From Amoebidium appalachense (taxonomy: Eukaryota; Protista; Ichthyosporea), in NCBI GenBank assembly GCA_963693365.1, contig CAVNZM010000004.1, forward strand, positions 11,064,468-11,128,467: DNA of 64,000 nucleotides, written 5' to 3'. The notes beneath the pieces were generated by a model. The model saw only the letters and a program-made list of their open reading frames with translations, was not told where the DNA came from and did no database searches. The position numbers and the translations under genes are program-made. The number at the start of each line of letters is the position of its first letter. Position 1 is the stretch's first letter. Of the stretch, positions 2,477-51,937 are shown piece after piece.

Positions 2477-4291
2477 CAGGCCCTTGCAAAAATATCCCGA
2501 TTTTCGGGATATATCACGAAAATATCGAATGTTGCCCTGAATATCTTTTCTTTTGACTGGATTTATTCAACGGAAAGATATGCAAGTATGCACGGCATAC
2601 GGATAAGACAATAAAAACTTCACGAGTTATCCAGTAACAAGTGCATACTGAGATACCTGAACACTGTGTGAAAATCATATAAATACTCAATGTGACGACC
2701 AACAGAATTCAACAAAAAGTCTAAAGTGTTCACATTGCCAGCTAGTGTAGCAGATACCCGGAGGGAAAGAGAAAGAGGTAAAACGCGACATAAAAATTCA
2801 CACCTATCAACATGCTTGCGATTAAAAAGGTCAGCGCAAAAGTGGCACCAGCGGCGATGAAAACAAGAATTACAGCGCCACTGCACAACTGCCCAGGCAA
2901 TATCAACATCAGAGCACCATACAGACTTATCTACTAGGGTGGTATCCATACGTACAGCAGGAGAAATGTATCCTGCCAAAGCTCCCAAAAAGCGATAATG
3001 ATCAGTACGGTGTTGCCTAAGGAACATAACACATGCCGACTGAGTTTTACCTTTGATTTCTCTATCAGAACGAGAAAGAAACTTATACTGCGTATGGTAA
3101 TAACGCGAAAAGGCAGAAAAAACAGGAAGAGAAAAGAAAGAGGGAGTGAGATAGCGAGAGGAAGAATCAGGTGGAAAGAGGGTAGGCTGAGGACATTCAG
3201 AAGTAGCGTTGGTGAATCGGGGGGGAAGAGGGGTGGAGGGAGGGGGGGGAAAGAAAGCATAAAGAGGGTGACTGAATATCACAAAAATATCCCGGCAAAA
3301 GCCCCTGAATAATCTTATTTGAAAATATCTTAAAGGCCCCTGAATATCACGGGATATGTATCAAAAATATCTTGACTTTGACCTGAATATCAAGTCGAAA
3401 TATCCTGATTTTTTGCCTTGAATATCACGAAAAAATTTCTTTTGACTCGGTTTTATTGATCCGTTGATGAAGGCAACGTGCAGCCACAGGCTACATAACC
3501 ACCAATAGAACTGAAAAAGCCAAAGCTACGAAATAAAAATAAAGCTACAAGTGACAAAGGACACCAGCGGGCAAAACCTTAAGTGTACGTGTATGCGTGA
3601 AGCTAGTTTGCTCCAACGTTAGTCATATGCATTGATGTTGACCAGACCGTGCACTCCGCAAGAAGACATCATTACTACTGCTTCCCAACAGGCCCCCCTC
3701 AAAACCTACCGAGGCACAGCAAGCAAGTCAGCCTCTAAAAGAGCAATGCAGAACAAATCTGAGCTAAAAAAACATTCCCAACGAGGCCCGGCCCCTAGAT
3801 AACCCGGAGAAACTGCATCTAGCTCTCTGATAAGGTGGCCTAGCCTGGCAGGACACACAGAAAAAATATCCCCCCTTTACCCAAATAAGGAAATAAACGG
3901 GGTTTTGTTCCGATTTCCGCTATTTTTGTAGATCCCTATGGAGAGCATATATATACCCCCAAGGTCGTCCATCTAAGGGCAATCCAAAGCAATCCGGTCG
4001 CTTTAGGCCCTTTTTAGGCTAAAATAGAAGATTTGGTAGTGCAGGAAGTGCGAAATAAGATTTTTCTGTGACTTTTTGTTGAGTTTTTCACAAATTTTTA
4101 CATTGAAAACAAGGGATATATCCCGATTTAAAGTCGTGATATATCCCGCCCTGAAAGATATTTATGATATATCATTTTTTTGGTCTGTCCCCTGGATATC
4201 ATTCGATATATCCTGCCTAGTCCCCGAATATCTCGAGATATATCATAATATGTATCGAATCGGCCCCTGAATATCAGAAGAAGGGGCCCTG
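2477..4291. mobile_element. Degenerate non-autonomous DNA transposon, possibly hAT-like
   Basis: Imperfect inverted ends (CAGGCCCTT ~2477; AAGGGGCCCTG ~4281-4291), clusters of AATATC/GATAT motifs at 2490-2545, 3270-3430 and 4110-4275, and an internal relic reading KCSHCQL..GKTRHKNSHLSTC that resembles a BED finger. No clean TSD seen. Confidence 0.5.
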
Positions 4292-6800: not shown

Positions 6801-6961
6801 CCACAAACGCACCTGAGACATGCTTATAATCCATTTGTCATACACTTCTTACTATAGTGAGTTGCCTTACCAAAAGAGTCATAGTACCCACTTTTCCGTC
6901 ACCCTTCCGTACCGGCGCACGTTTTTTTCTGCGCAAGGTGTCACCAGGCACCACATCTAAA

Positions 6962-8424
6962 ATGCACTTCACAACTAGAACCTCCTGTCTTCTGGCTGCC
7001 CTAGTCGCCTTGGGGCATGTGCACGCATATCCTCGTACTGGGAGAGAAGCTCCACAAGACGACCGTTCAGTCAAGCTCACACCCGTTAACGTTACTAACC
7101 CGTCTTCTGCTGACCCCTCGTCCATAGAGCTACCCACCATCAAAACATCTGATGCCGCAGACTGTGGGGTAGCAATCGGTCCCAAGTGCTACTACAACCT
7201 TGTGCGCGCGCTTGAAGAGGCTGAGTGGGGCTCGACCATTGTCGTGTCCGAGGACCAAACAATTAAGGAGGAAATTAAAGTTAGCAACTCGCTCACTATT
7301 GTCGGCCGAGGAAGACCTACAATTACAGTGGATATTACTGATGCACGCGCAACGAGCACCGCCATTCGTATGACTGGAGACGGACAGGAGCTTGTCCTGA
7401 GCAACCTCAAATTCGCTAACGTTGGCAAGTATGGGTCTGCGGTTCGCTCTCCTGAGTTGGGTGACGGCGAATACCCCGAGGACCCTTCTGTAACGAGTGT
7501 TCTTACCGTGCTGAATTGCGATTTCAACAAGTTCCGCACGGGCACACGTGGCGGTGCAACCATTCACCTCGGCATGACGGATAAGTTGATCATCCACGAC
7601 ACGAGCATCCGTGAGGGCATTGTGGAAGATTTCTCTCAGCTCGGCAAGATACAGTACGAGGGTGGTGGAAGTGTGTGGGTGGCTAACCTTTTTGGGCCGG
7701 TCTCCATTCTCAACAGCGAGTTTTCTGACAACGCCAACCTATATCCTCACGGATTGGGTGGGGCTCTAACGATCAATTTTGTCAACGGAAATATTGATAT
7801 TATCGACAGCGTGTTTTCTTCCAACAAGGGTGCCGAGGGTGGTGCTTTGTACATCGGTGGGGTGGAAAAGGGCCAAACAGTAAAACTGGACTCGACTTTT
7901 GAGGACAATGTTTCTGTCTATACCGAGGGATGGTCTAACAAGGGCGGCGCGGCAGTGATTCAGTTTATTAACGGCACCGTGCACGTGGGTGGAACATTCT
8001 CCAACAACGTGGCCCAAAACGACCGTGGTGGCGCTATTGCAAACAACCGCATTCGCGAGGAGGGAAAGGTGACCATGCAGCTAAATTTGGGCACAACACG
8101 TGTGGGAAGGGTGCGGCGGTGTGGGACACGCTTCAGGAATTTGCCACCGGGGTTTCTTTGACGATTGATGGGTCCACTTCTATGACCGGCAACAAGGCGT
8201 ATGATGGCCTGGATTTGGTCGTGCGCCTGCGGTCCGTTGACAACGGTTTTAAGAACATTTACATGTATGAGAGCGAGTGGGATGGTGATAAAATGACATT
8301 CCCGGATGATCGCGACAGTCTGAAGGGCACCATACCGCCCTCCGACCCGGTTTATGGTTCAAATTCCACTTCTACCAATTCCACTACTACTATCACGGCT
8401 AGGACGAATCTGGATGAATCGTGA
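6962..8424 (+). CDS. Intronless secreted right-handed beta-helix protein (Pmp-like GGA/FxxN repeats), one frameshift near 8076
   Basis: Signal peptide MHFTTRTSCLLAALVALGHVHA; repeated FxxN..GGA[ILV] motifs (FSDN..GGAL, FSSN..GGAL, FEDN..GGAA, FSNN..GGAI). The pattern continues in another frame after ~8076 (AAKFGHNTCGKGAAVWDTLQEF...) to the stop at 8424. Confidence 0.75.
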
Positions 8425-10747: not shown

Positions 10748-11460
10748 TTTTTATGTCGCGTTTTACCTCTTTCCCTACGGGTGTCTGCTACACTGGCTGG
10801 CAATGTGACCACTTTAGACTTTTTGTTGAATTCTATTGGTCGTCACATACATTTATATGATTTTCACACAGTGTTCAGGTATCTCAGTATGCACTTGTTA
10901 CTGGATAACTCGTGAAGGTTACACCGTACTGATCATTATCGCTTTTTGGGAGCTTTGGCAGGATACATTTCTCCTGCTGTACGTATGGATACCACCCTAG
11001 TAGATACGTCTGTATGGTGCTCTGATGTTGATATTGCCTGGGAAGTTGTGCAGTGGAGCTGTATGTAATTCTTGTTTTCATCACCGCTGGTGCCACTTTT
11101 GTGCTGAACTTTTTAATTGTAAGCATGTTGATAGGTGTGAGTTTTTATGTCGCGTTTTACCTCTTTCCCTACGGGTGTCTGCTACACTAGCTGGCAATGT
11201 GAACACTTTAGACTTTTTGTTGAATTCTGTTGGTCGTCACATTGAGTATTTATATGATTATCACCCAGTGTTCAGGTATCTCAGTATGCACTTGTTACTG
11301 GATCACCCGTGAAGTTTTTATTGTCTTCTCAGTATGCCGTGCATACTTGCATATCTTTCCGTCGAATAAATCCAGTCAAAAGAAAAAAAAGGTTTATTGT
11401 CTTCTCAGTATGCCGTGCATACTTGCATATCTTTCCGTCGAATAAATCCAGTCAAAAGAA
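10748..11460 (-). mobile_element. Inverted, internally duplicated copy of part of the 2.5-kb element
   Basis: 10920-11385 is a near-identical reverse complement of ~2545-3012. 10748-10915 duplicates 11143-11315, and 11393-11460 duplicates 11317-11385. Confidence 0.8.
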
Positions 11461-12010: not shown

Positions 12011-12278
12011 ATGGCACGGCCACGTGTACCCCTTCTTTGCGCTCTGCTATTGAGCCTATTGGGTATGTATGTTCCAAGCAGTGCAGTGGATATCGATGAT
12101 ACGCATTTACAGGCCGTCAGCTTAATATGAGCAGTTGATCATCAGTTATCTGTACTGAACTTCAATGATCACCTGCGCCGTCGGGACCCAGAATTTAGAA
12201 CACACACACACACACACTCCCCCCCCACACACACACACATGTGCACACACACACACACAACACCACCGGTACCCCCCC

Positions 12279-12311
<33 letters not shown>

Positions 12312-12474
12312 AGTGTCACACACACGCGTGTGCGCACGCACGCACGCACGCACACATACACACACAATAACACACAAACACGCACATACGGCGGCACATA
12401 CAACACACGCACATGCAGGCACGCACACGGATGCCATGGGCACAAACGTGCACAGTGTACACATGTATACACAT

Positions 12475-12512
<38 letters not shown>

Positions 12513-12517
12513 ACACA

Positions 12518-12588
<71 letters not shown>

Positions 12589-14148
12589 TGCATCGGGCGC
12601 GAAGAAAATAATGTGTGTGTGCGCCTGATTAAATATAATATTATGCGTCCCAGGACCTGTGTGCCGCTGGTAAATGTGGTTCGAGTTTAACGCACACGTT
12701 TGAATGATGTATTTGGTGCATTCACAACTTGAAACATTTCGGAATCCCCCGTACCTTTCTCACGTGTCACCTATTGTGACATACAGGGGCAGTGCTTGGG
12801 ATTGAAATGGCACCATGCACCACAAATGATGAGTGTGCTGCCCAGCCCCACTCCACCTGTGACACCACCAACAATGTGTGCAAATGCAAACAGGGCTATT
12901 TCTTCGACTCTGCCGCTACCTCCAGTGCCACAGCCTGCGTCGGTACAACCCCCCCCCCCCCCCTCCCCCCCCCGCGCCCCACATGCGCAGTTTCAATAAC
13001 ACTCTGGTCGTTTCCATGATTAGCGCGGCCCACAATATCGATCTATTGCTGCACGGTGCCTCCCGTTTGCTGGCAAATCATAACGCTAAATAACATTCGT
13101 GGTTTTTCTTTTTTCTTTTTTTTTTATTTTCCCCCTCCGGATTCCTCCCTTACCGGGACAATAGCCACTGCAGATTTTGAAAAATTACAAAACGTGCCGG
13201 TCTCTATTTCACAGATCCGCCTTCTCCCCGGGAGGCCTATTTCACCGCTGCCTTCCCCTAAATTTTCTTAACCCTTTATCGAGAACGTTAACAGCCTCAC
13301 TAACACATGCTCGTACCCGCACAAACAGACCCCTGTGTGGGCTCAACCGAAGCTAATAAGTGCGGTGTTGATGCAACATGTACCGCCAGTTCACTCACCA
13401 GCTTCACGTGCAAGTGCACAGCTGGGATCAGCTACGACAAAAACGGCACGTGTACCACCTGCGCGATTCCGACCAATTGCGCCGCGCTGAGCTCGTGTTC
13501 ATTGGTGAATTGTGCTGAGAATGCAACGTGCTCTTGCCCACTGGCCACTTGTTCTGAGATTGTCTCGTGCTCTTCGTGTAAAGATGGGTACTATCTCACA
13601 GACACCGTCAACAATTGCACAAAATCATGCACAAGTGTGTCTGGTTGTGCCACCGGCAAGGTGAAATGCACCAATGCGACCGACTCGACGTGCAGTGAGT
13701 GTAATTTTGGCTACTACCTAAAGGATGGCAAGTGTAATTCATGCACTTCTGCTTCCAACTGTGTTTACGGAAACACCAAATGTGGGCTCAACAACACAGC
13801 GACACAGTGCACAAAGTGTAATGATGGTTACTACATCAATGCAACAAGCGGCCTGCAGCTGTGTGATGCGTGCATAGTTGTCGACAACTGCAAGACAGGG
13901 AAAATCACGTGCCAGAATGGGACTGTATCGACGTGTGCTGAGTGCAATGCGGGTTTTATCTTTGGGAATGCCGACAAGACCAGCTGTGTTGTTGGTAGGT
14001 TTACCCCCTCCCCCCTCCCCTCCTCTCATGCCCTCCGTCCTCTCCCCCCTTACATCGATATCCCTTTACTACAGCTCCGTTCTCACGCCCTCCCTCATCC
14101 CCCCTCCCCCTCCCCCCCCCCCCCCCCCCCCGGGCCCTCCAAACCACC

Positions 14149-14187
<39 letters not shown>

Positions 14188-17100
14188 GCACACGCACCAT
14201 CCCTCGACCACACCTGTCAGTGATGCAAAGTACCATACATTCGGCTCAACCACATTCAACATAGAGCAAGGTACGACATATGGGAAGTTTGTTGGAGTGC
14301 AGACTTACGCTCACTCCACAATATGTGTATGTTAGCTTTACAATTGGTTCCGTGTACACAGACACACGCTGACACTCGATCACCACATGCACATCTGCAT
14401 AGTTGAGGAATGTTGCCAATTGTGTTTTGACTGCAAACGATTGGTTCACTGGTCCCAGAGATCTCTAAATGAAAGTAACCAATCCGATTAGCACCTGGCA
14501 TCCGGATTACATTCCAGACTGCTGCCCCACGGGTATATAAGCCACGTCTCTGCCAGGTGCAGACATGGAGTTCAGACATGGAGTTCAGTCATGGAGTTCA
14601 GTCATGGAGTTCAGACATGGAGTTCAGACATGGAGTTCAGTCATGGAGTTCAGTCATGGAGTTCAGTGATGGAGTTATTCATGGAGTTCAGTCATGGAGT
14701 TAACACACTGAAAGCAGTAAAAAACGGGTCAGCGCCCAAGCGCGCCACGACGACCCTAGTCACAGCGGACTCTACTTCCAACAGGGTTATGGGCCCAGAC
14801 ACGACACCGCGGCCTCTAACTTCATTAGAGACTTTCGCTTCCACAAACTCCATCCGCAGCAGCCTGCGACATCAACGTCAAGTATTCCACTTCATTGGCG
14901 GGGCACGCACCACAGTGGAATGCACACCCCGGTCTACCCTGCAAGCAGCCACACTCACTCTCTCTTCTCTAGTGGTGTGTACACTTCTCCAATTGGGTAG
15001 GGGTGTTGGAGTGCAGACTTACGCTCACTCCACAATATGTGTATGTTAGCTTTACAATTGGTTCCGTGTACACAGACACACGCTGACACTCGATCACCAC
15101 ATGCACATCTGCATAGTTGAGGAATGTTGCCAATTGTGTTTTGACTGCAAACGATTGGTTCACTGGTCCCAGAGATCTCTAAATGAAAGTAACCAATCCG
15201 ATTAGCGCCTGGCATCCGGATTACATTCCAGACTGCTGCCCCACGGGTATATAAACCACGGCTCTGCCAGGTGCAGAAATGGAGTTCAGTCATGGAGTTC
15301 AGTCATGGAGTTCAGTCATGGAGTTCAGTCATGGAGTTAACACACTGAAAGCAGTAAAAAACGGGTCAGCGCCCAAGCGCGCCACGACGACCCTAGTCAC
15401 AGCGGACTCTACTTCCAACAGGGTTATGGGCCCAGACACGACACCGCGGCCTCTAACTTCATTAGAGACTTTCGCTTCCACAAACTCCATCCGCAGCAGC
15501 CTGCGACATCAACGTCAAGTATTCCACTTCATTGGCGGGGCACGCACCACAGTGGAATGCACACCCCGGTCTACCCTGCAAGCAGCCACACTCACTCTCT
15601 CTTCTCTAGTGGTGTGTACACTTCTCCAATTGGGTAGGGGTGTTGGAGTGCAGACTTACGCTCACTCCACAATATGTGTATGTTAGCTTTACAATTGGTT
15701 CCGTGTACACAGACACACGCTGACACTCGATCACCACATGCACATCTGCATAGTTGAGGAATGTTGCCAATTGTGTTTTGACTGCAAACGATTGGTTCAC
15801 TGGTCCCAGAGATCTCTAAATGAAAGTAACCAATCCGATTAGCACCTGGCATCCGGATTACATTCCAGACTGCTGCCCCACGGGTATATAAGCCACGGCT
15901 CTGCCAGGTGCAGAAATGGAGTTCAGTCATGGAGTTAAGTCATGGAGTTCAGTCATGGAGTTCAGTCATGGAGTTCAGTCATGGAGTTCAGTCATGGAGT
16001 TCAGTCATGGAGTTCAGTCATGGAGTTAGTCATGGAGTTAACACACTGAAAGCAGTAAAAAAACGGGTCAGCGCCCAAGCGCGCCACGACGACCCTAGTC
16101 ACAGCGGACTCTACTTCCAACAGGGTTTGTTGGAAGTAGAGTCCGCTGTGACTAGGGTCGTCGTGGCGCGCTTGGGCGCTGACCCGTTTTTTACTGCTTT
16201 CAGTGTGTTAACTCCATGACTGAACTCCATGACTGAACTCCATGACTGAACTCCATGACTGAACTCCATGACTGAACTCCATGACTGAACTCCATGACTT
16301 AACTCCATGACTGAACTCCATTTCTGCACCTGGCAGAGCCGTGGTTTATATACCCGTGGGGCAGCAGTCTGGAATGTAATCCGGATGCCAGGCGCTAATC
16401 GGATTGGTTACTTTCATTTAGAGATCTCTGGGACCAGTGAACCAATCGTTTGCAGTCAAAACACAATTGGCAACATTCCTCAACTATGCAGATGTGCATG
16501 TGGTGATCGAGTGTCAGCGTGTGTCTGTGTACACGGAACCAATTGTAAAGCTAACATACACATATTGTGGAGTGAGCGTAAGTCTGCACTCCAACACCCC
16601 TACCCAATTGGAGAAGTGTACACACCACTAGAGAAGAGAGAGTGAGTGTGGCTGCTTGCAGGGTAGACCGGGGTGTGCATTCCACTGTGGTGCGTGCCCC
16701 GCCAATGAAGTGGAATACTTGACGTTGATGTCGCAGGCTGCTGCGGATGGAGTTTGTGGAAGCGAAAGTCTCTAATGAAGTTAGAGGCCGCGGTGTCGTG
16801 TCTGGGCCCATAACCCTGTTGGAAGTAGAGTCCGCTGTGACTAGGGTCGTCGTGGCGCGCTTGGGCGCTGACCCGTTTTTTACTGCTTTCAGTGTGTTAA
16901 CTCCATGACTGAACTCCATGACTGAACTCCATGACTGAACTCCATGACTGAACTCCATGACTGAACTCCATGACTGAACTCCATGACTTAACTCCATGAC
17001 TGAACTCCATTTCTGCACCTGGCAGAGCCGTGGTTTATATACCCGTGGGGCAGCAGTCTGGAATGTAATCCGGATGCCAGGCGCTAATCAGATTGGTTAC

Positions 17101-17743
17101 TTTCATTTAGAGATCTCTGGGACCAGTGAACCAATCGTTTGCAGTCAAAACACAATTGGCAACATTCCTCAACTATGCAGATGTGCATGTGGTGATCGAG
17201 TGTCAGCGTGTGTCTGTGTACACGGAACCAATTGTAAAGCTAACATACACATATTGTGGAGTGAGCGTAAGTCTGCACTCCAACAGTTTTGCGTTGGGCG
17301 GTTCAAACTAATACTGGAGGTAGTCCGTCTCGACGCATTGCAGGAGATGAAAGAATCCGGTATGAATGCAAGAAAGAAACCAAGCAACTGAGAAATTCAT
17401 GGCTCCTGCAACATTCTTTTTTGCGACTACAGTAATAATCATATTAGGCATTGGACCCCCCTTCCCCCCTCCCCCTCCCCACTCCCCCCTTCCCCCCTTC
17501 CCTGCCCCGCCACCGCCGTCCCTCCTCTCTCGTCCCCCTCTCCCCCCCCCCCTTTCCCTTTCCTTCCCTCCTCTCCTCTCCTCCCTTCTTTTCCACCCTC
17601 TTTCATCCAATCAGATCCCTGCTATAACGGCACATGTGGTGTGGGTGGTACCAGCTGCACCGTGCCCCCCAATGACGTCACCAAGTTTGTGTGCACGTGC
17701 AAGCCTGGCTTCTACGTGGACAGCACCTGCAAGGGTAATACTA

Positions 17744-17788
<45 letters not shown>

Positions 17789-19413
17789 AAAAAAAGTTTT
17801 GGCCAGTCCCCAGATAATTCAGTCCACTCCCATCACACCCTCTATCATCTACTCAACAACCCATCAACATACTGTGCCCCTTTCAGTCCCCGGCCTGCGA
17901 CTGAGATATTTCCCTTGAAGTTGCAGCAAACAAGAGAAATTGTAAGGCGGCGTGCCCCCTCTTCGGAACACTTAGCAACCTACCTCTCCAAAACCCGTAC
18001 AGAATGCGTGCAAAGACGTAGCATAACTTTCGTTTTTAGCAGCCCCCTCCTTCTCTCCGTTTCCCAATCACCCAACCATTATATACCATTATAATGTATC
18101 ATATCAGCACATACACACTGCTTTGTCTCCGAAGTCTAGTTAGATTTCCCTGCTCACCACGACAATCCCCAACTTGGCCTTACTATCCCGAACTCAACAC
18201 GCCTGTAACTTGACGCAACCACACCACCACTGCCGCCAGCGGGCAAACACTAATATATGTACACTACGCTTTATTTTAAACACACACATCCACCATCCCT
18301 TCAGAGTGTCCGCCATCCACCGTGGCCAACTGCCAGTCAGTAGTGTGTGATGGGCCCACCACCAGCACGTGCACCAGTTGCCTGCTGGGCTACTATTGGG
18401 CAAAGGGCAATACCACATGCACCAGTACGTGTCACGTTCTGACCCCACTGCCAACCCTCCTCCCCTTCCCTCCCCCCCCCCCCCCCCTCCCCCCCCCCCC
18501 GCCCCCATGCGCCCCTCCCCCCCCCCCCCCCCCCTCCCTCCCATCTCCCCGCTGCCTCCCCCCCTTCACCCACCTTCATCCCGTTTAGCCATCCCATGGC
18601 CCACTACATCCCGCTTGCAGCCCTTTTTTCCATCTGACACCCCCTACCTCAAAGCCCACCCACCACCCACCCGTTCCCCATCATAAAACATTTATGTGTT
18701 GTCCGGCGGACTTCCAATGGCAATTTCATATGCAACGGAGTTCCACACAGCTATCTTCTAACACGGTGAGGCTCTAAGACTTAGTCTTGTAAACTGTTCG
18801 CAACTCTGTCTCTGCCGACTCAACCTATCTCTTACATTCTTATAGGTTCGAGAGAAGAACTTTAACAGTTGCAACCGTTGGTATATCCTCTACGTATATC
18901 CTCTAAGCATTTCCAATAAGTATATCCTCTAAGTATATCGTCTAGATAAGTCATTATCTATTTATATCACGTTCGGCACAGTATCCTCTGGGTATATCCT
19001 TTAATTATTTCAGTCTAGGTACGCACGCGTTCTCTTGGCACAGTATCCTCTAGGTATATCCTCTAGGCATATCCCCTCAGTATATCCTCTTGGTAAATCC
19101 TTCAGGTATATCCTCTAAATGCTCCATTGGTTTATCCTCAAAGTATGATATATCTCTAGGTATCATAGTATATATTCTCTTAGTAAGCGTATTCTTACAT
19201 ACAGGGTGCACCGAGCCAGCCAATTGTACCACCATCATCCCATGCAAAACAGCCAGTGATGCTGTGTGTGAAAGCTGCAAGACAGGATTCGAAATGAAGG
19301 ACGGGATTTGTGTGGCCCAGCAGACGGCAAACACTCCCAGTGCCGCAAATAGGTTAAACATCGGCACTGCTGCACTAGTTGCACTTCTGTTTGCTTTTGC
19401 CATGATGTTCTGA
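12011..19413 (+). CDS. Cys-rich EGF-like/CxxC-repeat cell-surface protein, probably GPI-anchored
   Basis: Exons 12011-12062, 12787-12942, 13329-13994, 17615-17734, 18305-18424 and 19205-19413, all introns GT-AG phase 1. Signal peptide MARPRVPLLCALLLSLLGAVLG; CxxCxxGYY repeats; C-terminus PSAANRLNIGTAALVALLFAFAMMF*. Confidence 0.88.
14290..16122 (+). mobile_element. Tandem TRIM (non-autonomous copia-type LTR element): LTR-int-LTR-int-LTR
   Basis: LTRs 14290-14783, 15004-15420 and 15641-16122, each TGTTGGA...TCCAACA. The 220-bp internal parts start with PBS GGGTTATGGGCCCAG and end with PPT GGGTAGGGG. Confidence 0.92.
14563..14702 (+). repeat. 13-bp tandem repeat (CATGGAGTTCAGT)n inside each LTR
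   Basis: About 11, 5, 10, 9 and 9 units in LTRs 1-5, starting ~25 bp after GGGTATATAA. Confidence 0.95.
16128..17285 (-). mobile_element. Inverted TRIM copy: LTR-int-LTR
   Basis: LTRs 16817-17285 and 16128-16596, internal part 16597-16816, PBS 16802-16816 and PPT 16597-16605 on the minus strand. Confidence 0.92.
18880..19180. repeat. Degenerate TATATCCTCT minisatellite in an intron
   Basis: More than 10 variants of (G)TATATCCTCT(A). Confidence 0.7.
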
Positions 19414-22071: not shown

Positions 22072-24809
22072 CTAGTTCACAACCAACGCTAGTATAACAC
22101 ACAAATATCCAAAAACAACCCAATGGGCAGTTCCTATTGGCTGCAGGTCACACGCAGCGCCGTCACGTGGGGGCATAGCAAGTGAGCAGTGGGTTTGGGG
22201 TTCTGCCCAGCCATCGTTGCAGCTCAGACACACCGTGTCTCCGGTCTCTGTCTTGCATACGGTGGTGCGGTTGCAGGTGGGGTACTCGCTGCAGCCTGTG
22301 TGTGTGTGTGAAAGGGTTAGGGTGGGTTAAACCGTGTTTCCGTATGAGAGCTGGGGGTATACGTGCGATATGTGCACATTTTCTGGCAGTAATTGGGTGG
22401 TTGTTTTGTGCTTTGGTGTGTTATTGCTTTTTCCCCCCTGGTTGTTGTTGTCCCCCCCCTCCCCCCCCTTATTTTTTTTTTTTTTTTTTTTTTTGGGGAG
22501 GGGGGGGGGAGGGGGGGAGGGGGGGGGGGGGGGGGGGGGGTGGTGGTGGGGGAGTGGGGGGGACAGGGCAAAGAAGAAGGATGTAAGGACTGTGCCGGGG
22601 GAAGGGAGAAGAAAGTGATTTCAGAATATGGTACAGATACATCTTCTGTTAGCGAAGATACACATGTCTAGTGTGGACGGTATGATGAGTGTCCAGGATG
22701 AATGGGCAGCACAAACGCGGGATGTGTGTGTGTGTGTCTGTGTGTGTGTGTTTGCGTACGTATGTACGTGTGTGTGTGTGTCTGTGTCGGTGTGTGGATA
22801 TGTTTGTGTACGTGTGTGTGAGCGCGCGCGCGCATGTGTACGTATGTGTATGTTTGGGTTTGGGGTTTGGGGGGGAGGGGGGGGGGGGGGGGGGAGGGGT
22901 TACATACGATTGCATCTGCCGTTAGCAGCTAGGTAGTAACCGCCCACACAGGCCAGGCATGTGGTATCATCAATGGTTAGGCCCGTGCAGTGCAGGTCAG
23001 CTGTGCACCCGAGGGGCTGTGGGCAGGCTGTGGGATCGGGTAAATTTTATTGGATATTTGTTACTTGTGCAGGGAAAATGCTATAATTGTATTTATGGGG
23101 TAGCGTTCAAAAGGGAACAGGTCGGGGTGGGGGTGGGGGATAACAGGGGGTAACAGCATAGCAATCAATGTTGCTACAACAAAGGGGTGTATTCGTTACA
23201 AATACATATGCGTTCGGGGGAGGGGGGAGGGGGAGAGGGGGGGGGGGTGTTGGGCTTTATAACACACTGGAGATGCCTTTGCGGAATGGGTGTCTTTACA
23301 AAGGGTTTTACGGAACACAATCAAAGCACTTAAATACCTTAAAGAAACACCACTAGGGGGCCACCAACCACTGCACTGTGACGTGCCATCCACGGTGTAC
23401 CCTGGCTCACACTCACGGCACTGACTGCTGGCTGCACTGCTGCACGTGTACTCCCCAGCAATACAGTGTGCTGGTTGCTGGCAGGCTGCAGAGGTTCGGG
23501 GGTGAATGGGTGTGGTGGCATATATGGATGGGGGGTGGAGAGGGGAGGGGTGGGGGGGTGAGGGGCAAGGAGGGAGAGGAGGGAGAGAGAAAGGGGGGGA
23601 GGGGGGGGAGGGGGGAGGGGGAGAGAGAGAGAGAGAGGAGGAGGGGACAACGGGGGAAGTTAGAAGGGGCGGGAAGGGCGGGAGGAGGACGGAACGCTTG
23701 ATGAGTTGTTTCATTTGTGATGGGGGTCGGGTGTAAAGGGTAGGAGGGTTGGAGCGTGGCCCCGAGGGGGGGGAGAGGGAGGGGGGGGGGGGGACGAGGG
23801 GGAAGGGGGAGGAAGGGAAAGGGGTGGGGGGAAGGGGGGGGTTCAAAGGCTTACCTTCGCATTTTCCATCAGCAAGGTAATAGCCCTCAATGCACCCAGC
23901 ACACATTGAGCTACCATCAGACACACTGCATGTCTCATACTGCATGCAATGGGCAATGTTGGGCACGGGGCACTTGCTGCAGTCCGTCAAATTTCCATTC
24001 GCGTGGTAGAACCCCCCCCTCACACTGGCAGGTAAAACTATCCGGCCCGTTTGATTGGCAGATGCCGTTGGTGCAGGCGGGAGAGCCGTTGTGCCAGAAG
24101 GGAAGGCACGGGTCTGCAAATGCACAGGTGTAAATGATTTATCGATCTCATTCACGATTTTTGGGTTTGTCCTAGCGCGCACATGTGTATGGTACCACCC
24201 ATCACTCCAGCTCAATGTGTTATACGTCCTCCTCCTTCCAACCCCCCCCCCCCTCCCTTCCCCCGGCCCCTTCCCTGAACTGTGGTCCTAAGCTCCTGAG
24301 TTCCCCAGGAAGAAAATTAGACAACACGTGAGGGCGCGCGGGGGGAGGGGGGGGGGGGAGGGAGGGGGAGGGGGAACAAATGGGGAATCATAACGTCCTC
24401 CTTCTTCCCCCCCCCCCCTTCCTCCCCCGGCCCCTTCCCTGAACTCTGGTCGTAAGCTCCTGAGTTCCCCAGGAAGAAAATTAGACAAGGAGGGGAGGGG
24501 GGGGGGGGGGGGGGGGGGGGAAAGGGAGGGAGGGGGAACAAATGGGGAATCATAAGCCCGTGGTAAGCAAAAACAAAAGTAAATAAAGGACAAGAAGAAA
24601 AGGGAGAAAGAAGTAAAGAAGAGGTACATGACAATATTCGTTTGTTCAGCCTTTGACCACCAACTACGTGTAGGTTAGGTATGCATACCTTTGGCACACT
24701 TTCCAGCCACCACCACGTATCCCTCGTTGCATGCAGTACATGTGCCGGCCGTCTTGCTCGTGCACACAATGTTGTTGATGGGGCAGTTGGGGACGTCGGA
24801 CCGGCATTC

Positions 24810-24902
<93 letters not shown>

Positions 24903-25168
24903 GGCCGGCGGGGGGGGGGGGGGGGAGGGGGAAGGGGTGAGAGAGGAGGTAGGAGGGGGAGGGGGGGGGGGGGGGAGGGGGAGGCATGGGGGCTGAATTA
25001 GTACGTGTTCATCCCAAACGAGTGCACTAGAAAGATCCCTGGAACCCGTATGGACAACCAACAAATTAGATAGATAATCCATGAAAAAACATCTGTCATT
25101 CTTCTAGCACATAATATGTGTCCGCCCGCTGTGTTTTTGAAACAACGAGAGAAAGTGGGGGGAGAAGG

Positions 25169-25202
<34 letters not shown>

Positions 25203-26139
25203 GGGGAGGGGGGGGGGGGGGGGGGGGGAGGGGAGGGGAGAGGAGGGGGGGGGGGGAGGGGAGGGGAGGGGGGGGGGGGGGGGGGGGCGGGGGGGGGGGG
25301 GGGGGGGGGGAGGACTCTCGGAGTTTGGTTATGGTATCAAATTTTAGGTACGAGATGAAAGGAATAAGAGGTTGAGGAGTGGGCGGGGGGGCTTGGAATG
25401 GGGGGAAGGTTGGGGGGAGGGGGAGGGATTTTTTTCCAGTCACCTGGGTCACATCTGCCGCTACTAACATCGTAGTAATTGGTCTCACATTCCCCACAGG
25501 TGCTGTCTGATTGGTTGTTGCAGTAGTACAACTTGCAGTGGGGCAGGTGCAGATCCGTGCAAGCTGATTGGAGGAGGGGGGTAAGAGGGTGTGTAAATGG
25601 CCGGTGGTGAAAGTGGGGGATTAGAATGTGTCACAGAATACGAGATACACGATGAACAATACAAACGGTCCCCCCCCCTCCCCCTCCCCCCCCCCCCCCC
25701 CCCAAAAAGGCACGCCAACAGTATGCATAACAGGGTATGTGCCGTCACTTTTCTCTGCCTTCTTCCCCCTTCAAAAAAAAAGGGTGGAGGCGCGGGCTGG
25801 GGGGGGGGGGGAGGGGGAGGGGGGTTGCAATCGACCAGGGGGACCTTGCATGACATCCGTATTTTGTATCCATAACACAACTCCAATTATGCCCATATGG
25901 GTAGGTAGAGAGGCTACAGTATAAAAACAGCAAAGAATACAAGGCGAGGTGTGCAAGAAGAATTACCACTGTACCACAGTATGTGCGTGTTCTTGTAGGA
26001 GGGGGCAGAGGGAAGGGGGAAGGGGGGAGAAGGGGTGGGTGGGTGGGGGGGGGGGGTTGGGGGGGGGGGGGGGTTGGGGAGGGAGGATGTGTGTGTCTGT
26101 GTGTTGTGTGTGTGAGTGGGTGCGTTCGTGTGCGCGCGC

Positions 26140-26224
<85 letters not shown>

Positions 26225-26545
26225 ATTTGCGTGTGCGTGTTTTGTGGGTAGGTGTGTGTGCGGGCTGATGTGTGTGATGGGTTGGGTTTAGGGGATAAAC
26301 ACAAAGCATACCGGGACAATGAAAGTGCTCATCCAAGTAGAAGCTGGGCAAGCACAGCTCACACGTGTAGTCAGTCAGGCTCGTGCATTCAGTCACCTCC
26401 AGGCACCCCTCATCCCCCAGGCACGGTACACACGTATAGTTCTGCTCGGGCTCGGGATATTGGCCCTTTCTGCACGTGCACGTGTTGTTGGGCCCCAGCC
26501 GGCATGTACCTACCTCACACACACCCTTGCAAGGGTCTGTATGTG

Positions 26546-26620
<75 letters not shown>

Positions 26621-26858
26621 GGGGAGGGGGAGGGAGGGGGAGAGGTTAGCATGTATTACAGAGTGCAACTCTTTTCTGATTTCTCTCTCCCTTTTCAAGA
26701 AGTGTGGCCTTTTCTTTTCTTGCCTTTCCTGGGCTCTCACAGACTAGCACCGTCTCACTCCCATCCCGAAAAAGAGCGTTTAGGACAGAGTTATAATAGC
26801 AGTGAATGTGTATGGCAAGAAGTCATGGATGGGTGGGTTCAGGCAGGGCAACGGCTTT

Positions 26859-26933
<75 letters not shown>

Positions 26934-26943
26934 ACGCGCACGT

Positions 26944-26982
<39 letters not shown>

Positions 26983-28924
26983 CATGCGCGCGTGCGTGTG
27001 TGCGTATGCGCCCACTACGTGCACGCGTTTATTCCCCCCCCCCCCCCCCCCCGCTTTTTTTTTTTGGGGGGGGGGGGGGGGGGGGATTTGAATGCGGAAC
27101 ACGGTACGAAGTACGCATACACGAAGGACACATGCAAAGGCAAACATCCAAGTATGCAACATAGCCATGTGCACAGTATGCGTCATAAGCAGAGCCCATC
27201 CTCAGGGAGGGCCCAAGTCACCAATTGCGTCTGAGTTTCGACCCCTTAGCCCGCGTATATACGACTCTCCAACTCAGACAGCAGCATCAACTGACCTTGG
27301 GAGGGTCAACCCGTCTTGATCAAAGACGAGCAGGGTTGCTTATGCAAGCAAGGTGAGCAAAATGGTGAATATGTGTGTGCAAACTAATGCAGTGCAGCGA
27401 AAAATGCATATGTGCTTACAGATGCACGACCCAGAAAACTATGCCCGGTTGCATGGAAGTGGGGGGGGGGAGGGGGGTTCAATGGAAACGTACCGACAAT
27501 GCACTGTGTTTTCTCCAAATTCGGAATCAACCCACTATCACACCCTCCGCACTGAGAATTGTTTGATCCGGTACACGTCAGCTGGTCTGGTAGGCAGTGT
27601 TCGATTGAGGCACATTTGTCACAGTCCGATTGGGCAGAGTTAAGGTGTGTGCCAATAGGGCACGTGCATGTGAAGGTGTTGGTGGATGTGCTCGTGCAGT
27701 TCCCGTTGAGACACACACCGTTGCAGGAATCTGTCGGTTTGAGTGGCACACGGTGTGAGGTTACGGTATTTTTGCAATATGGCAGGTAACAAATACTAAA
27801 ATTGTTACTAATAATAGTCTATAAGCCCATCCATACTTCCTTATATGTTTTGAGCCTTTTCAGAATAATTGTGCACATTGCTAATGGTTGTTCAGCTGTG
27901 CCAGACGGGAGGGGGGAGAAGGGGGGGGGGGGGGGGGGGAGGAGGAGGGAAGGGAAATGCAGAGTACACATGAAAAGAAGCATATTCACCTTCTCGAATA
28001 CTTTCCAATCCTTTGAACCCGGAATTGCTTTACGTACCTAAATAAAAACACCCATTCCCACGTTCTCTTTCTCTCTCTCTCTCTTTTTTTCTTGGATTAA
28101 TTTAGATTTTCTCGGACATAAGCCATGCCTAACTTTGCAATTCAATCGTTCGGCCCGAGTATTCCTGCGAGTTCAATATGTGAAACTTACGGAGGTCACA
28201 CGCCGTCCCATTCGAGTTCAGAATCCACCCGTTCTCACACTTGCTGCACTTCGAGTCACTTGGGCCGGTGCACGTCACAGGGTTCGAAATGCAGTGGGGA
28301 ATGACGGTGCAATTGTCACAGTCCGACTTGGCAGGGATGAAGTATGAGCCAGCAGGACAGGCGCACGTGTAGGTGTTGGCAGATGTGATGGTGCAATTGC
28401 CGCTGAAACACACACCGGAGCAAGGATCTGCGGGTGTAAATGGTGTAAGATTTCGAGGTTTTACAGGCCCCGGGGCATAGAAAACAAGACAAAACAAAAC
28501 AAAACAAAACAAAACCAAAAAAAAACAAAAAAAAACAAAACAAAAAAACCCTTGTTATTATATATAATACCTCCACATGCGATATATATCATGTACTTTC
28601 GTTATCTATATATGTATCTTGTTGGGTGGGAATATTGTTAGCCTTGGTGCCGGCACCTTATTACATATAGCTCACATACATCGCGTTAACTAACAGCACA
28701 CTCCCCCCCAAAAGGGTGTGGGTGATATAAAATTTAGAGGTTTAACAACAAACGACAATATCACTGATTGCATTTTCAGTCTTCGCAAAAAGCAATGACT
28801 TCATCGCAAGCATATTTTGTCAGGAAAAAGATGGCCGAGAACTTAGGTGGCATGATTGTTTTCCTTCTCTTCCTTTCTTTCTCTCTTTTTTCTTCTTCTT
28901 CTTTTTCTTTTTCTTTCTTTTTTT

Positions 28925-28955
<31 letters not shown>

Positions 28956-30013
28956 GGGTTGGGAAATCCCAATTCGCTCAATGCAATATATAATGGTGTG
29001 TTTGGATCCCCTCCCCCTCCCCCCCCTCCCGGTGTGCCAAGCGCCATTCCTCGTCATTCAAGTGTAACAGTTCCCAAAATGTAACAGCAAAATCCAACAC
29101 AATTTGATCGGCCAGTCTACCATGTAAAAGCCGTAGACGAAACCTACCGACTACGCATGCGGTATGTTCTGCATTACGCAACCACCCGCTCATACACGCC
29201 AAGCACTTGGAGTCCTTGGGTCCGGTGCATGTCATCTGCGTGCAGTATTGAAGAGGGGTGCATTTGTCGCAGTCGGATTTGGAAGAGTTGAAGTATGAGC
29301 CAGCAGCACAACTGCACGTGTAGTCGGTGGCAGACGTGTTGGTGCAATTGCCATTGGCACACACACCGATGCAGGGGTTTGCTGTGGATTTGAGTGTGAA
29401 AAGGCTTAATCTTTGGAACTATGGTAACGAGCATCTAGTTTCGAAGTCAAGTATTGGATCGTCTATGGTGATCACATGCAAAACAGATCATTTTGCTTGT
29501 TAGATACCACCCAGCCTGAGGCTGCCCCACGACCTGCCATAAAAGATGTACATTGATTTAATTTGGCACAAAACAAACAGCTATGTAAACAAGGAAACCA
29601 ACTGAGCAATTGTTGTGTCGAAGTTTAAGCATGGCTGATGCAAACATGTACAGGGGTATAGACTTACCATCCACACAACCACTTTTGTCTGCATTTGGTT
29701 TCCAGCCGTGCTCACACTGGCTGCATGTGGAGCTATAAAACCCAGTACACAGCAGGGCATCACTCAGACAGTGGGCGATGGTGGAGCAATTATCACAGTC
29801 CTCCTTTCCATAATCGAAATATGTGCCGTTAGAACATCTGCACGTGTAATCAGTGCCATTGGAGGTGAGGCGACAATCACCGCCCACACAAACCTTGGAG
29901 CAGTAGTCTGGTTTGGGTGATGGTGATGTCAGACATCGAGCTTGCAGGGACAGGAATCGGTTCAATGTATGTAGCAATTTATCATACATATCTCATCTAC
30001 TCTGCCACTGCCA

Positions 30014-30049
<36 letters not shown>

Positions 30050-31242
30050 ACACACACACCATCTTTTGTTTTTTCACTACTATGAAAATTCTTGTATAAC
30101 CTTAAGTTTCATTAACGTGATGTCATTAGTTGCTTCCATGCAAATGCTTTTCCATTTATCCTTCTCTGTCCTCCCCCCCCCCCCCCCCCCCCCTTTTTTT
30201 TTTCGTCCACAACGCCCCTGAGGGGCCCCATCACAATGATTATTAGTATTATTCTTAAAAGTTATCGTATACCGAGGACGTAGTTATTCTTTTCTCTCAT
30301 CTCGTATATCTTTGTTCATATGGATTAAATATGAATATAAAGATAATTCTTTGAACGAAGTTTTCCATGCCATGATTCACCTCATACTGGATATGCAAGC
30401 TGCCAGTCCCCCCTCTCCTCTGTCCCCTTCCCCCCCCCCCCCCCCCCCCCCCCGCCCCCCCGTCCCAACCACCCACACAAAAACACACACACATTGATGG
30501 TGAAGGTCCTCGCAATCGCTTAAAGCTTTACACCTCCCCTTGGCTCTTATTCTCCTGTTGGTAAGTGGCATGTATGGGGGTATCAGGCATTCATTTGGCA
30601 ACCATCTAATAAAACAATGAGTAATGTTATTGCAGATTGCAAGAAAAAGTTGAGTCCGATATAATCTCAAATGCAATCACACCACACGTCGATTTCGTGT
30701 ACCTACCAATCCAGCACTGTGTCGAATCGGGATTCGGATAATACCCTTCAAGACAAAGCCCACAAGTTGAGTTTTCTGGGCCCGTACAACGGAGCATCCC
30801 GTCTTTGCAGGATTGAATGGGTGTACAGGTCACACAGTCTGTACTTGTGCTGGTACTAGTTCTGTTCGGATATTGACCGGGGGGGCATTCTTGGGCACCT
30901 GTGGTGGTGGGTAGCATGTTATGATCACATGAAAGGCAAGCCAAACCACGCCCTGAGACAAACAGACAAATATTATGCAGCATTGGGGGCTGAATCCGAT
31001 CACATGCATGAGAGGGCGTATGTCGTGGTATTACCACAAATCTCCTGCATTACACAAAGTGCGTTGACGTTCACTGGCAGGGCTAGCCTGGTTTTATCTA
31101 GTCAATCAGTCTCCTTGTGCCATCACTTAACGGGCAAAAAATGATTGGAGGACTGCATGGAATGGTACGTACCCACTGGTGGCAGTAGGTGTGCCCATAG
31201 TGCCACGGAAAGCGGCAATAAAACAGATGCAAATCTCATCAT
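22072..31242 (-). CDS. Cys-rich EGF-like/CxxC-repeat cell-surface protein (13 exons), paralog-like to 12011-19413
   Basis: Exons 31242-31173, 30898-30707, 29907-29668, 29381-29148, 28427-28191, 27730-27494, 26536-26312, 25563-25444, 24808-24689, 24113-23855, 23485-~23369, 23027-22908 and 22295-22072, all phase 1. Signal peptide [25 protein letters not shown]; hydrophobic end [16 protein letters not shown]. One extra base in the homopolymer at 24012-24019. Confidence 0.85.
24223..24555. repeat. Intronic tandem duplication of ~165 bp
   Basis: ACGTCCTCCT...CCCGGCCCCTTCCCTGAACT...AGAAAATTAGACAA...GGGGAACAAATGGGGAATCATAA occurs twice. Confidence 0.8.
27086..27352 (-). mobile_element. Poly(C)-ended retroposon copy, subfamily B
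   Basis: Minus strand reads GCATAAGCAACCCTGCTCGTCT...GGGCCCTCCCTGAGGATGGGCTC...CTTCGTACCGTGTTCCGCATTCAAAT(C)n. Confidence 0.75.
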
Positions 31243-39055: not shown

Positions 39056-39887
39056 AAAAGAAATTGAAAAACTGCAACGCGCACAACCTAAGTCTGCAAC
39101 AAATCACGCATGAATATTAAAGGCGAAAGGAATTGTTTAATCGATGTGTTGCACACACATCGAGTAGAGACAGTCAAGTGTGTGGGGGGGATATACCCAC
39201 CTGGTTTTATATGAAACTTAGTGGCAACCCCCCCCCTCCTCCCCCCTCCCTCTAGGCCCTCTCTGAGGATGGCCCCTGATGATGTTGTACGCTGCGAGTG
39301 TTGCTAATGCTGCACACTTGAACCCCTGCCTTTGCATGTGTCCTGCACCGTGTTTCTTATTGAGTAGTTGTGCTTGCTTCATGCCGTGTTCTGCATTCTA
39401 ACAAACCCCCAGACGGGTGACCTACTCATGTTCAAGTGAAACAGTATCTGAGTTGGGTTTCGTTAACGAGGGGAATAGGTCGAAACTCGGGTACTGTGGA
39501 TGACGTGGGCCCCCCCTGAGGATGGGCTCTGCTTATTATGCATACTCTTTATGTATGGCTTGCATTCTGCATCGTGTTATCCGTTTGTTCTTGTGTACTT
39601 CGTACTTTTTGACGCATTCAAACCCCCCCCCCCCCCCCCCCCACCACCATTACCACCAACACCACCCTCCACCTTCCCCCCCTCCCCCTCCCCCTCCCGC
39701 CCTCCTCCTCCTCCCCCCCCCCCCCTTAATAGCCGTACACCAGCAACAGAGGCAGCCTGCTGCAGCCCCCGAGCCCGACTTCATCGACCAGACTATCGAC
39801 ACCATTACTACATCAGTGCATGGCCTGAAGGAGGGTAAGGGGGTCTATGTGTATGTGTAACTGTGTTAGGTGTGGATGGGTATGCGC

Positions 39888-41955: not shown

Positions 41956-42810
41956 ATCGTGGGTCAAATCTCATATTTTCCCCTCTGATTACGAATTCTG
42001 CGGCCTTCGGGACTTAATTCTTTTCAGCTGGTGTAGTATGTTAGCCAGGGAAGTATCGACTTAGGTATCGACGGGGGAGCTTCCTAGAAGCCCCGTCTCC
42101 TGAGTTCCTATCTATATTTTTCTTGCTTCTGCTTACTGCTGCAACTTTAACCCCCGGCCTTTCCCACTGCCCTTGCCTGCATAAGCAACCCTGCTCGTCT
42201 CTGATCAAGACGGGTGACCTACTCATGTTCAAGTGAAACAGTATCTGAGTTGGGTTTCGTTAACGAGGGGAATAGGTCGAAACTCGGGTACTGTGGATGA
42301 CGTGGGCCCCCCCTGAGGATGGGCTCTGCTTATTATGCATACTCTTTATGTATGGCTTGCATTCTGCATCGTGTTATCCGAGTGTTCTTGTGTACTTCGT
42401 ACTTTTTAACGCATTCAAAACCCCCCCCCCCATCTCCCCCTCCACCCTTTCAGAGAGGGGGGGAAGGGGGGGCTCCCTTCCTGATGTCGTGCCAGCCTTG
42501 TTATCAACCATACAACTCCATCTATTTGCCCCCTCCTTCCTTCATGTCCTTTTCCTGGGTGCCACACCTCCCCCTCTCTTCGCAAACTCTCTAGCCTCGT
42601 AATGAAGAAAGGAATGTATGCCTATATGCTCGGAAATTCATTACTTCGGCAGCTCGCTCTGTAGCCTGTTGCCCCCCCCCCCCCCCCCCCCCCCCCCCCA
42701 GTCCTTTGCCCTTCTCCACACATCACACACACACACACACACACACACATGCACACACACATACAACACCACACCACTACCATCGCTGGGACACGGTCCC
42801 TCTCCTTCTA

Positions 42811-47286: not shown

Positions 47287-47478
47287 CATGCGCGTGCGCA
47301 CGCTTAGTGGTGGTGGTGGTGGTGGTGGGGGGGGGGGGGGGGGGGGGTTTGAATGCGTCAAAAAGTACGAAGTACACAAGAACAAACGGATAACACGATG
47401 CAGAATGCAAGCCATACATAAAGAGTATGCATAATAAGCAGAGCCCATCCTCAGGGGGGCCCACGTCATCCACAGCAG

Positions 47479-50242: not shown

Positions 50243-51902
50243 TACCTACCAAAAAAAAAAAAAAAAAAAAAAAAAAAGGCCTCAAAAACACTCACAGAAC
50301 CCATTAAGATCTCCAACATGTACCCACCAGCATTTCATACCGCCTTCTAGTGGTTTCCAAAGCTTCCACAGTACCTCCTCCCCTTCCCCCTCCCCCCCCC
50401 CCCCCCCCCCCTCCCCCGGCCACCCCCACATAAAATCATAAATATTTAAAGATTATAAGCAAATAAATAAATAAATGAATGAATAATCCCCCTGCACGTG
50501 CACGTGTGTTTCCAAGGCTCAGTTCTTAAAAAGGGGTTTCTTTTAGCTTTTCGGGCCGGGTCGGGTCAGAGGGGATTCTAGCTATATGATTGGCGTACTG
50601 CGCATCAGCTGCGCACCATCTTTTGCCGGCAGCAAGGTACAGATGCGCCATAATACGACAATGAAGAGAAAGAAAAGAGAAAAAAAAGAAATAAAGAATG
50701 AATAATATTAATGAAGCTTTAGGAAGAAGATTGCAGTTCATATCATGATTTATTTGCTGAGTAAATGGTTTGACCCGGATGTGCTGGAATGGGGACAATT
50801 AATCGGCCTAAAAGAAACCCCCTTTAATTGTCCACGCGCTCACAGCCACACACGTACGTGTCTGCCCCCACCTGCTGGTCTGCCTCTCTTGGCAGCACGA
50901 CCCTGTGGCCTGGGTGCATGCCTGGCTCGATCCGTACGTCCAGCACTTTCTTTTCTGCATCGCATGTCCCCCGTCAGAATCTGCTCATATCCCTGACAGC
51001 GCGCCCCCCTCCCCCCCCCCCCCCCTCCCCCCTCCCCCCCCTTACCCTCTAACCCCATCACCGACCCACTCACCCACTCACCAAAACCACCCACCCAAAT
51101 ACCACCACCACCACAGACAACCCTCCCCCCCCCACACACACACCAGCACCGCCATATACACCCTCTCTCTCCCCCTTCCCCCACCACCACCACCACCACC
51201 ACCACTTACCCCCTCCCCTCCCCCTCCCCCCCCCTCTCCCCCCCCCCCCCCCCCCCCCCCCCCAAATCCCTACCTTCACCACTACCACCAACAAGTGGGT
51301 GACTGCCAACTCTGATAAGTCGAGCCATTTCGTTTACCGTTTACAATTAGTGCTTCCCTTGAACCTTGGGCGGACACACGGGGGGGGGGGGGGGGGGTTT
51401 TGAATGCGTCAAAAAGTACGAAGTACACAAGAACAAACGGATAACACGATGCAGAATGCAAGCCATACATAAAGAGTATGCATAATAAGCAGAGCCCATC
51501 CTCAGGGGGGGCCCACGTCATCCACAGTACCCGAGTTTCGACCTATTCCCCTCGTTAACGAAACCCAACTCAGATACTGTTTCACTTGAACATGAGTAGG
51601 TCACCCGTCTTGATCAGAGACGAGCAGGGTTGCTTATGCAGGCAAGGGCAGTGGGAAAGGCCGGGGGTTAAAGTTGCAGCAGTAAGCAGAAGCAAGAAAA
51701 ATATAGATAGGAACTCAGGAGACGGGGCTTCTAGGAAGCTCCCCCGTCGATACCTAAGTCGATACTTCCCTGGCTAACATACTACACCAGCTGAAAAGAA
51801 TTAAGTCCCGAAGGCCACAGAATTCGTAATCAGAGGGGAAAATATGAGATTTGACCCACGCCGCAGGGTAGTAACACGCTTACTAGGGCGGAACTTTATC
51901 GT

Positions 51903-51937
<35 letters not shown>

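Follow-up and report, generated by a model that had tools for sequence, protein, structure and literature searches.

A tail-to-tail composite of copia-like TRIM elements inserted as a single unit in a predicted intron of Amoebidium appalachense

In the window, that is, the whole stretch of 64,000 nucleotides of Amoebidium appalachense DNA analyzed here, positions 14290-17285 (2996 bp) are occupied by a composite of copia-like TRIM elements, in which an LTR-int-LTR-int-LTR array is followed by a 5-nt spacer, GGGTT, and by an inverted LTR-int-LTR (table 1). This composite is one insertion of a single unit at one target site, as deduced from the combination of an empty allele, intact ends and colinear exons. 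TG...CA termini are present in all five LTRs, and LTR 5' ends form both outer ends of the composite. The layout given in the preliminary description of this DNA proved right to the base when its coordinates were re-derived, and AGTTT is found at 14286-14290 and 17285-17289 as reported there. The designation of the structure as a 3-kb palindrome holds for the presence of inverted halves but not for their extent: mirror symmetry is confined to 15004-17285 (2.3 kb), and LTR1 with its internal region constitutes an extra unit.

Table 1. Coordinates of the composite, its target site and the predicted host gene (positions in the window)
Feature	Position	Strand	Description
LTR1	14290-14783, 494 bp	+	TG...CA, 11 units of 13-mer, TATA-like box at 14534
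int1	14784-15003, 220 bp	+	PBS at start, polypurine tract at end, non-coding
LTR2	15004-15420, 417 bp	+	5 units of 13-mer, other U3 haplotype; left hairpin arm begins here
int2	15421-15640, 220 bp	+	sequence identical to int1
LTR3	15641-16122, 482 bp	+	10 units of 13-mer; left arm ends here
Centre spacer GGGTT	16123-16127	+	PBS nt 1-5, separates the facing 3' (U5) ends of LTR3 and LTR4; hairpin loop; assembly only
LTR4	16128-16596, 469 bp	-	3' LTR of inverted monomer, 9 units of 13-mer
int3	16597-16816, 220 bp	-	identical to int1 and int2
LTR5	16817-17285, 469 bp	-	5' LTR of inverted monomer, 9 units of 13-mer; right-flank junction in X2 and X3
Target duplication GTT, left copy	14287-14289	+	sequence; GTT single in X6 empty allele; enumeration of fits
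Target duplication GTT, right copy	17286-17288	+	sequence; contigs; enumeration of fits
Predicted host gene	12011-19413	+	6 exons, 440 aa, one open frame, 5 GT-AG introns
Host intron 3	13995-17614	+	GT-AG, 3620 nt; 621 nt without insertion; predicted from sequence

The internal regions are identical in all three copies, and the five LTRs (417-494 bp) are alike apart from four U3/R substitutions, the variants and unit number of a 13-mer array, and an A-run. As already recognized in the preliminary description, LTR1 and LTR3 carry one haplotype at LTR positions 204 and 252 and LTR2, LTR4 and LTR5 the other, and the number of 13-mer units differs among the copies (table 1). The LTRs of the tandem half are mutually different, LTR1 and LTR3 being distinguished at positions 258 and 274 of the LTR, by the make-up of the array and by the A-run; the single difference between LTR4 and LTR5 is one C>T change within a CG. 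Aligned with each other, the arms 15004-16122 and 16128-17285 (approximately 1.1 kb) show 1103 matched bases, 3 mismatches and 65 gap columns, with a longest perfect run of 565 bp. Given these differences between mirror partners, together with the unique flanks, a fold-back (self-hairpin) origin is ruled out, in agreement with the earlier argument against a fold-back read. The TRIM element has no further copies elsewhere in the 64-kb window.

Of 21 sequencing runs listed for this locus, none of them recorded as RNA, 8 contained at least half of the words sampled, and the contigs of five runs were compared on two short stretches, 17260-17455 and 14705-15270. Such contigs show presence only, and rare or palindromic joints tend to drop out of them. 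On the former stretch, run X6, which comes from a different sample and bears a different organism label, is represented by a sole contig of 302 bp that runs from the left flank straight into 17285 and reads GGGAAGTTTTGCG, with GTT occurring once and without any LTR remnant; this is the empty-site sequence that had been predicted. No empty allele is listed in the contigs of X1, X2 or X3 on 17260-17455. The junction between an LTR 5' end and the right flank lies within one contig in two of the three insertion-type runs, X3 and X2, the right side of which reads CA and then GTTTTGCG; these contigs contain 26 LTR bases in the stretch, fewer than the 31-base guide for bridging, yet show the exact LTR 5' end. 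The X3 contig matches the window in 196 of 196 bases, T-run included, and X3 may be the source DNA of the window. X2, which belongs to another study, likewise covers the junction; its 1-base gap at 17417 shows that it is not the identical DNA, and the flank contig of X1 (same sample as X3) begins at 17290, hence shows no junction.

Four readings fit the empty allele, from a 3-bp duplication (GTT) with intact ends, through 4 bp at the cost of one terminal base, to 5 bp (AGTTT) at the cost of both; with intact TG/CA ends, no target bases are lost and the duplication is the 3-bp GTT. The earlier proposal of one insertion unit with such a duplication is thus sustained by the empty allele of X6 and the right junction in X2 and X3, the left end being seen in the assembly only. 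Likewise, neither half carries a 5-bp duplication of its own (AAGTT versus GGGTT; GGGTT versus GTTTT). LTR 5' (U3) ends face outwards on both sides, as had been stated, the right one being confirmed in contigs and the left one taken from the assembly, and therefore the strand must switch inside the insert; the centre strand-change joint is not among the joints listed for the X1 and X2 contigs on 14705-15270. An inversion between distant copies is ruled out by the in-frame exons on both sides and by the joined flanks of the empty allele.

The insert is situated in intron 3 of the predicted host gene, its left end 295 nt downstream of the donor and its right end 329 nt upstream of the acceptor, with exons on either side that join in frame, and its intronic location, previously suggested, is thereby borne out in the gene model. 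The predicted protein has a signal-peptide-like hydrophobic start, EGF-like and CxxC repeats and a hydrophobic C-terminus, features that would be those of a secreted EGF/CxxC protein; Pfam matches to EGF lie below the cut-off. Another 13-mer array, degenerate and unrelated in sequence, is found in the last intron of the same predicted gene (18881-19117). A series of EGF-like/CxxC exons resembling those of the host gene is found on the minus strand at approximately 23200-31050, and probably belongs to a paralogous surface-protein gene.

Its sequence features identify the element as a copia-like TRIM present in many copies. According to the criteria for TRIMs (Gao et al. 2016), the monomer LTR5-int3-LTR4 of 1158 bp falls below 1500 bp and possesses PBS and PPT; it surpasses the stricter limit of 1000 bp quoted in PMC10886601, and its duplication of 3 bp with intact ends (the left T-run being read from the assembly only) lies outside the 4-6 bp considered for TRIM duplications (Gao et al. 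2016). The terminal inverted repeat of the LTR is 7 bp. The frames listed over the internal region leave the element without coding capacity, and Pfam families of gag, RT or integrase are absent from its four longest frames, the two matches below cut-off being unrelated. Directly after the CA of the LTR come 15 nt that match the oligonucleotide printed in PMC1797187 as antisense to an internal part of initiator tRNA-Met. The PBS would accordingly be antisense to the anticodon arm of the initiator tRNA, pointing to half-tRNA priming and, with it, to dependence on copia. Priming by a half-tRNA characterizes Drosophila copia and some related elements.

In the LTR we found neither a 5S part nor a tRNA or tRNA-like part, which sets the element apart from TRIMp3 (Cassandra, Helenus, Ajax), and no hammerhead ribozyme of the kind that defines retrozymes (Rfam at E<=1). 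The only two Rfam hits at E<=1, to mir-8186 on the palindrome centre and below the gathering score, are an artefact of the palindrome. No autonomous copia partner sharing this LTR is present in the 64-kb window, and the element pattern gave 0 loci in two metagenome-contig scans and one viral-contig scan. On 14705-15270 there are 1282, 913, 53 and 31 contig records for X1, X2, X6 and X9, respectively, many of them with other flanks, the flanks of a copy not being paired in these records; the TRIM family is dispersed and multicopy, and far more varied in X1 and X2 than in X6. (In X6, the main contig of the internal region is longer by about 83 bases at 14824-14826, the same letters recurring in loose ends of X1, X2 and X9; this longer variant is probably ancestral and the form in the window a shorter derivative.) A loose end of X9 reproduces the internal region (14897-14926) with every G changed to A except in CG, so X9 looks, from these letters, like a bisulfite-type library. 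At least some copies of the family look CG-methylated, as judged from the one X9 contig tested, which is not specific to this locus.

A head-to-tail joint formed by an LTR 3' end, a single C and an LTR 5' end is found in X2 (at 14783/15004) and, from its other side (at 17260-17291), in X2 and X3 but not in X1, and belongs to a family copy outside the window. Its depth, 16.9 in X2 and 59.8 in X3, is close to the 10.9 and 42.2, respectively, of the unique flank, and it looks like a chromosomal 2-LTR junction of the L4I2 type, although it could alternatively derive from a neighbouring insertion. The single C fits neither the PBS side nor the PPT side.

As to the origin of the composite, we lean towards the end-to-end joining of two cDNAs, one of which retained 5 nt of PBS sequence, over integration into the PBS. 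An autonomous copia would have supplied RT and integrase in trans, and the tandem half would have been assembled from several templates because LTR1, LTR2 and LTR3 all differ. (A single RNA template is ruled out for this half by the differences of LTR1 and LTR3 detailed above, and one crossover with a 1-LTR circle fails to yield the 13-mer array of LTR2.) The three-LTR tandem cDNA and a single-copy cDNA would then have been joined tail to tail at their U5 ends without microhomology, one end still carrying 5 nt of PBS (CA-GGGTT) and its partner being clean, by blunt ligation or by an end-to-end jump of RT; the joining may have preceded insertion, or may represent a later repair, two U3 ends having first been inserted separately. 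The dimer was likely pasted into the intron via its two U3 ends, and the short duplication would reflect an irregular reaction, in which the cut was staggered by 3 bp, or by 5 bp with a single overlapping nucleotide at either end.

A finished cDNA should be flush at CA, and leftover primer sequence would read GGGTT, because the primer abuts the LTR. The LTR-C-LTR joint points to blunt joining, and to the possibility that ends of this family are also joined in the opposite orientation. In maize, the direct (L4I2) and reversed (R-L4I2) pairs of TRIMs recorded in Table S3 of PMC4717578 are equally common, with 6 of 93 each under the latter heading and the former, as would be given by orientation-blind joining. 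Against the joining of ends stand the following observations: the spacer has exactly the 5 nt of the usual copia stagger, which an integrase reaction explains directly, and the centre joint is not listed in X1 and X2 although the LTR-C-LTR joint is listed in X2.

What made the outer joints is less certain than that the composite went in as a single unit. Duplications of 1-3 bp in yeast were reported for non-integrase insertion and those of 5 bp for the Ty1 integrase (PMC2939329), so the 3-bp duplication is not a hallmark of integrase; the same source attributes ambiguous 1-nt overlaps to uncoupled cutting and joining, and an overlap of 1 nt stands at both ends of the present insert (chance, about 1 in 16). 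The intact TG/CA ends and the lack of lost target bases suit integrase. Overall, the composite is most likely a copying accident without selected function, by default a young scar with a neutral or slightly harmful effect.

The preliminary description had instead proposed that one cDNA integrated into the PBS of another, which is probably not the best reading considering that the PBS is flush with CA and that the LTR-C-LTR joint exists. By such a route, unlikely in our estimate, integrase would have put the U5 end of one cDNA into another's PBS with a 5-bp stagger, the rest being lost and the dimer inserted by its U3 ends. The 5-nt spacer equals the copia stagger and the inverted copy is flush at CA, both in favour of this route, and auto-integration in particles with inversion products is documented for Ty1 and Arabidopsis SISYPHUS (PMC7197481). 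However, a flush CA end is expected of any finished cDNA, with the PBS starting at CA, and the half-joined, branched molecule would require another cut. Intramolecular auto-integration, moreover, yields circles and not two free U3 ends. The hit must also be exact to the base, for which random integration into a 700-bp unit gives about 1 in 700 (simple arithmetic with no hot-spot assumed), and the auto-integration sites of SISYPHUS are spread across the whole element (PMC7197481).

We regard as improbable an assembly error, whereby the true allele would be a simple inverted copy or array, or the middle would be mis-built, or, more mildly, the left T-run would be under-called and the TSD would be GTTTT. 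The centre joint is absent from the joints listed, the left junction comes from the assembly, both LTR ends start with the same 7 bases and, in the mild form of the error, two more T at 14289 would make a 5-bp TSD. Set against this are the unique flanks and the exons that join in frame on both sides, the own haplotype of each of the three forward LTRs, and the identity of X3 with the window over 17260-17455, in which the T-run is included; as for the missing joint, contigs lose rare or palindromic joints, and the LTR-C-LTR joint itself is listed in only two of three such runs. If the mild form were true, the single-unit conclusion would stay and integrase would be favoured for the outer ends.

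A sequence of two ordinary insertions and a deletion appears very improbable to us. An array with the TSD AAGTT would have received a second copy, inverted, into its last PBS (TSD GGGTT), and a deletion of approximately 0.7 kb would then have extended from the end of this second copy to the outer TSD; normal staggers would account for the 5-nt spacer and the short TSD alike. Long inverted repeats are fragile, and a nested insertion of EVADE into its own sequence, in antisense orientation, has been reported (PMC11624286). Nevertheless, both deletion ends must lie within 2 nt of the element borders, and there was little time for three events, LTR4 and LTR5 being 1 base apart and the internal regions 0. 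Deletion via the 7-nt homology of the LTR ends can be rejected: the right flank would then retain AAGTT in full, which the X2 and X3 contigs contradict.

Coming back to the composite as it now stands, RNA of 15430-16820 is predicted to fold as a single extended stem whose loop is the spacer (-1443.7 kcal/mol, a fold prediction with no shuffle control at this length), and transcription through the insert would be predicted to give a 1.1-kb hairpin. As suggested in the preliminary description, such a hairpin might act as a source of siRNA or modify splicing. TATA-like boxes are present in all five LTRs, three on the host strand and two on the opposite one, so placed that transcripts could enter the hairpin from both sides. 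Each LTR also has an AGTAAA motif, a candidate poly(A) signal at which host transcripts might stop in LTR1, before the hairpin. Mu killer of maize and the antisense nested EVADE similarly are transposon-derived inverted repeats that, under transcription, are able to give hairpin RNA versus their family (PMC11624286); Mu killer originated from a DNA transposon and has proven silencing activity, whereas here an LTR element is involved and the hairpin is predicted. According to the same source, hairpins from nested or tandem LTR copies are proposed, not proven, to start EVADE silencing. By analogy, the locus might be an LTR-retrotransposon counterpart of Mu killer, with one-step cDNA end-joining, a transcribed hairpin, inward promoters and small RNAs silencing a TRIM burst and its autonomous helper, an idea that we consider a long shot. 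If true, small RNAs from an LTR hairpin would silence their own TRIM family in a single-celled eukaryote, and the existence of strains with and without the allele makes the idea directly testable. Short of proof of hairpin silencing, the locus is a rare scar and not a new system.

Inverted TRIM pairs under one TSD are already known from maize, and the present case is unusually well resolved. Gao et al. (2016; PMC4717578) validated by PCR and sequencing an inverted TRIM pair under one 5-bp TSD, and inverted pairs under one duplication (Zma-SMART, Zma-Cassandra) account for the 6 of 93 maize tandem TRIMs mentioned above. The maize R-L4I2 form has inverted adjacent TRIMs under one duplication, as has the present composite, the centre of which is known from the assembly alone; the left half corresponds to L3I2, the commonest maize array (63 of 93; PMC4717578). 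The composite differs from R-L4I2 in its five LTRs, three internal regions, TSD of 3 instead of 5 bp, PBS-stub spacer and empty allele, a comparison drawn with the text and tables of PMC4717578, which give neither orientation, junction nor mechanism. Homologous recombination, invoked for maize tandem TRIMs in a preprint (10.1101/010850), cannot, we infer, give rise to inverted TRIMs that share a single TSD.

Tandem LTR arrays are common (PMC11899658, PMC13570524), and those of Cassandra and other TRIM-LTR elements share LTRs as here (PMC7215508, PMC11899658, PMC13570524). For Cassandra, template switching among small co-packaged RNAs in reverse transcription is one proposed origin (PMC7215508), with which the three different LTRs of our tandem half are in line; Cassandra-type arrays, however, are head-to-tail, whereas the present one is tail-to-tail and without a 5S or tRNA-like LTR part. 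The composite may also be likened to Ty1 multimers, 2-LTR circles and auto-integration products, in which cDNA ends are end-joined or self-integrated; in the same sources, blunt TG...CA ends are integrase substrates and irregular TSDs with 1-nt overlaps were observed (PMC7524711, PMC7197481, PMC2939329). Ty1 multimers are direct arrays made by recombination and the circles are extrachromosomal, whereas here the tail-to-tail product is chromosomal. TRIMs are recorded in plants, algae, insects, cestodes, bivalves and fungi in PMC10886601. In the open-access literature, outside which subscription papers mostly lie, we found no published description of a chromosomal PBS-stub U5-U5 junction. The locus provides a base-resolved case, with empty allele, of how a single insertion of LTR elements can create long and perfect inverted repeats, and it demonstrates that both ends of an insertion can be identical U3 ends. 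Its central PBS stub renders the origin of reversed tandem TRIMs testable, genome-wide spacer spectra separating end-joining from integration.

Other features of the window include a DnaJ chaperone exon with a CXXCXGXG zinc domain (51883-52554, minus strand), for which one search gave 0 matches and another 8 weak matches of 25-30% identity. A long single frame at 6830-8161 has a weak match to the Chlamydia PMP repeat, and only two relatives of it were found, both EukProt proteins, with 97% and 39% identity. One repeat family, present at 2546-3013 and 10748-11460 in copies about 94% alike, has an internal 175-bp duplication and a terminal 76-bp tandem duplication. Another dispersed repeat, of 474 bp, ends at a C-run and has its two longest copies, 99.2% identical, at 41958-42431 and 51387-51860 (inverse), with partial copies near 39411-39651, 47307-47475 and 27066-27353; its 5'-truncated copies suggest a young element of non-LTR type.
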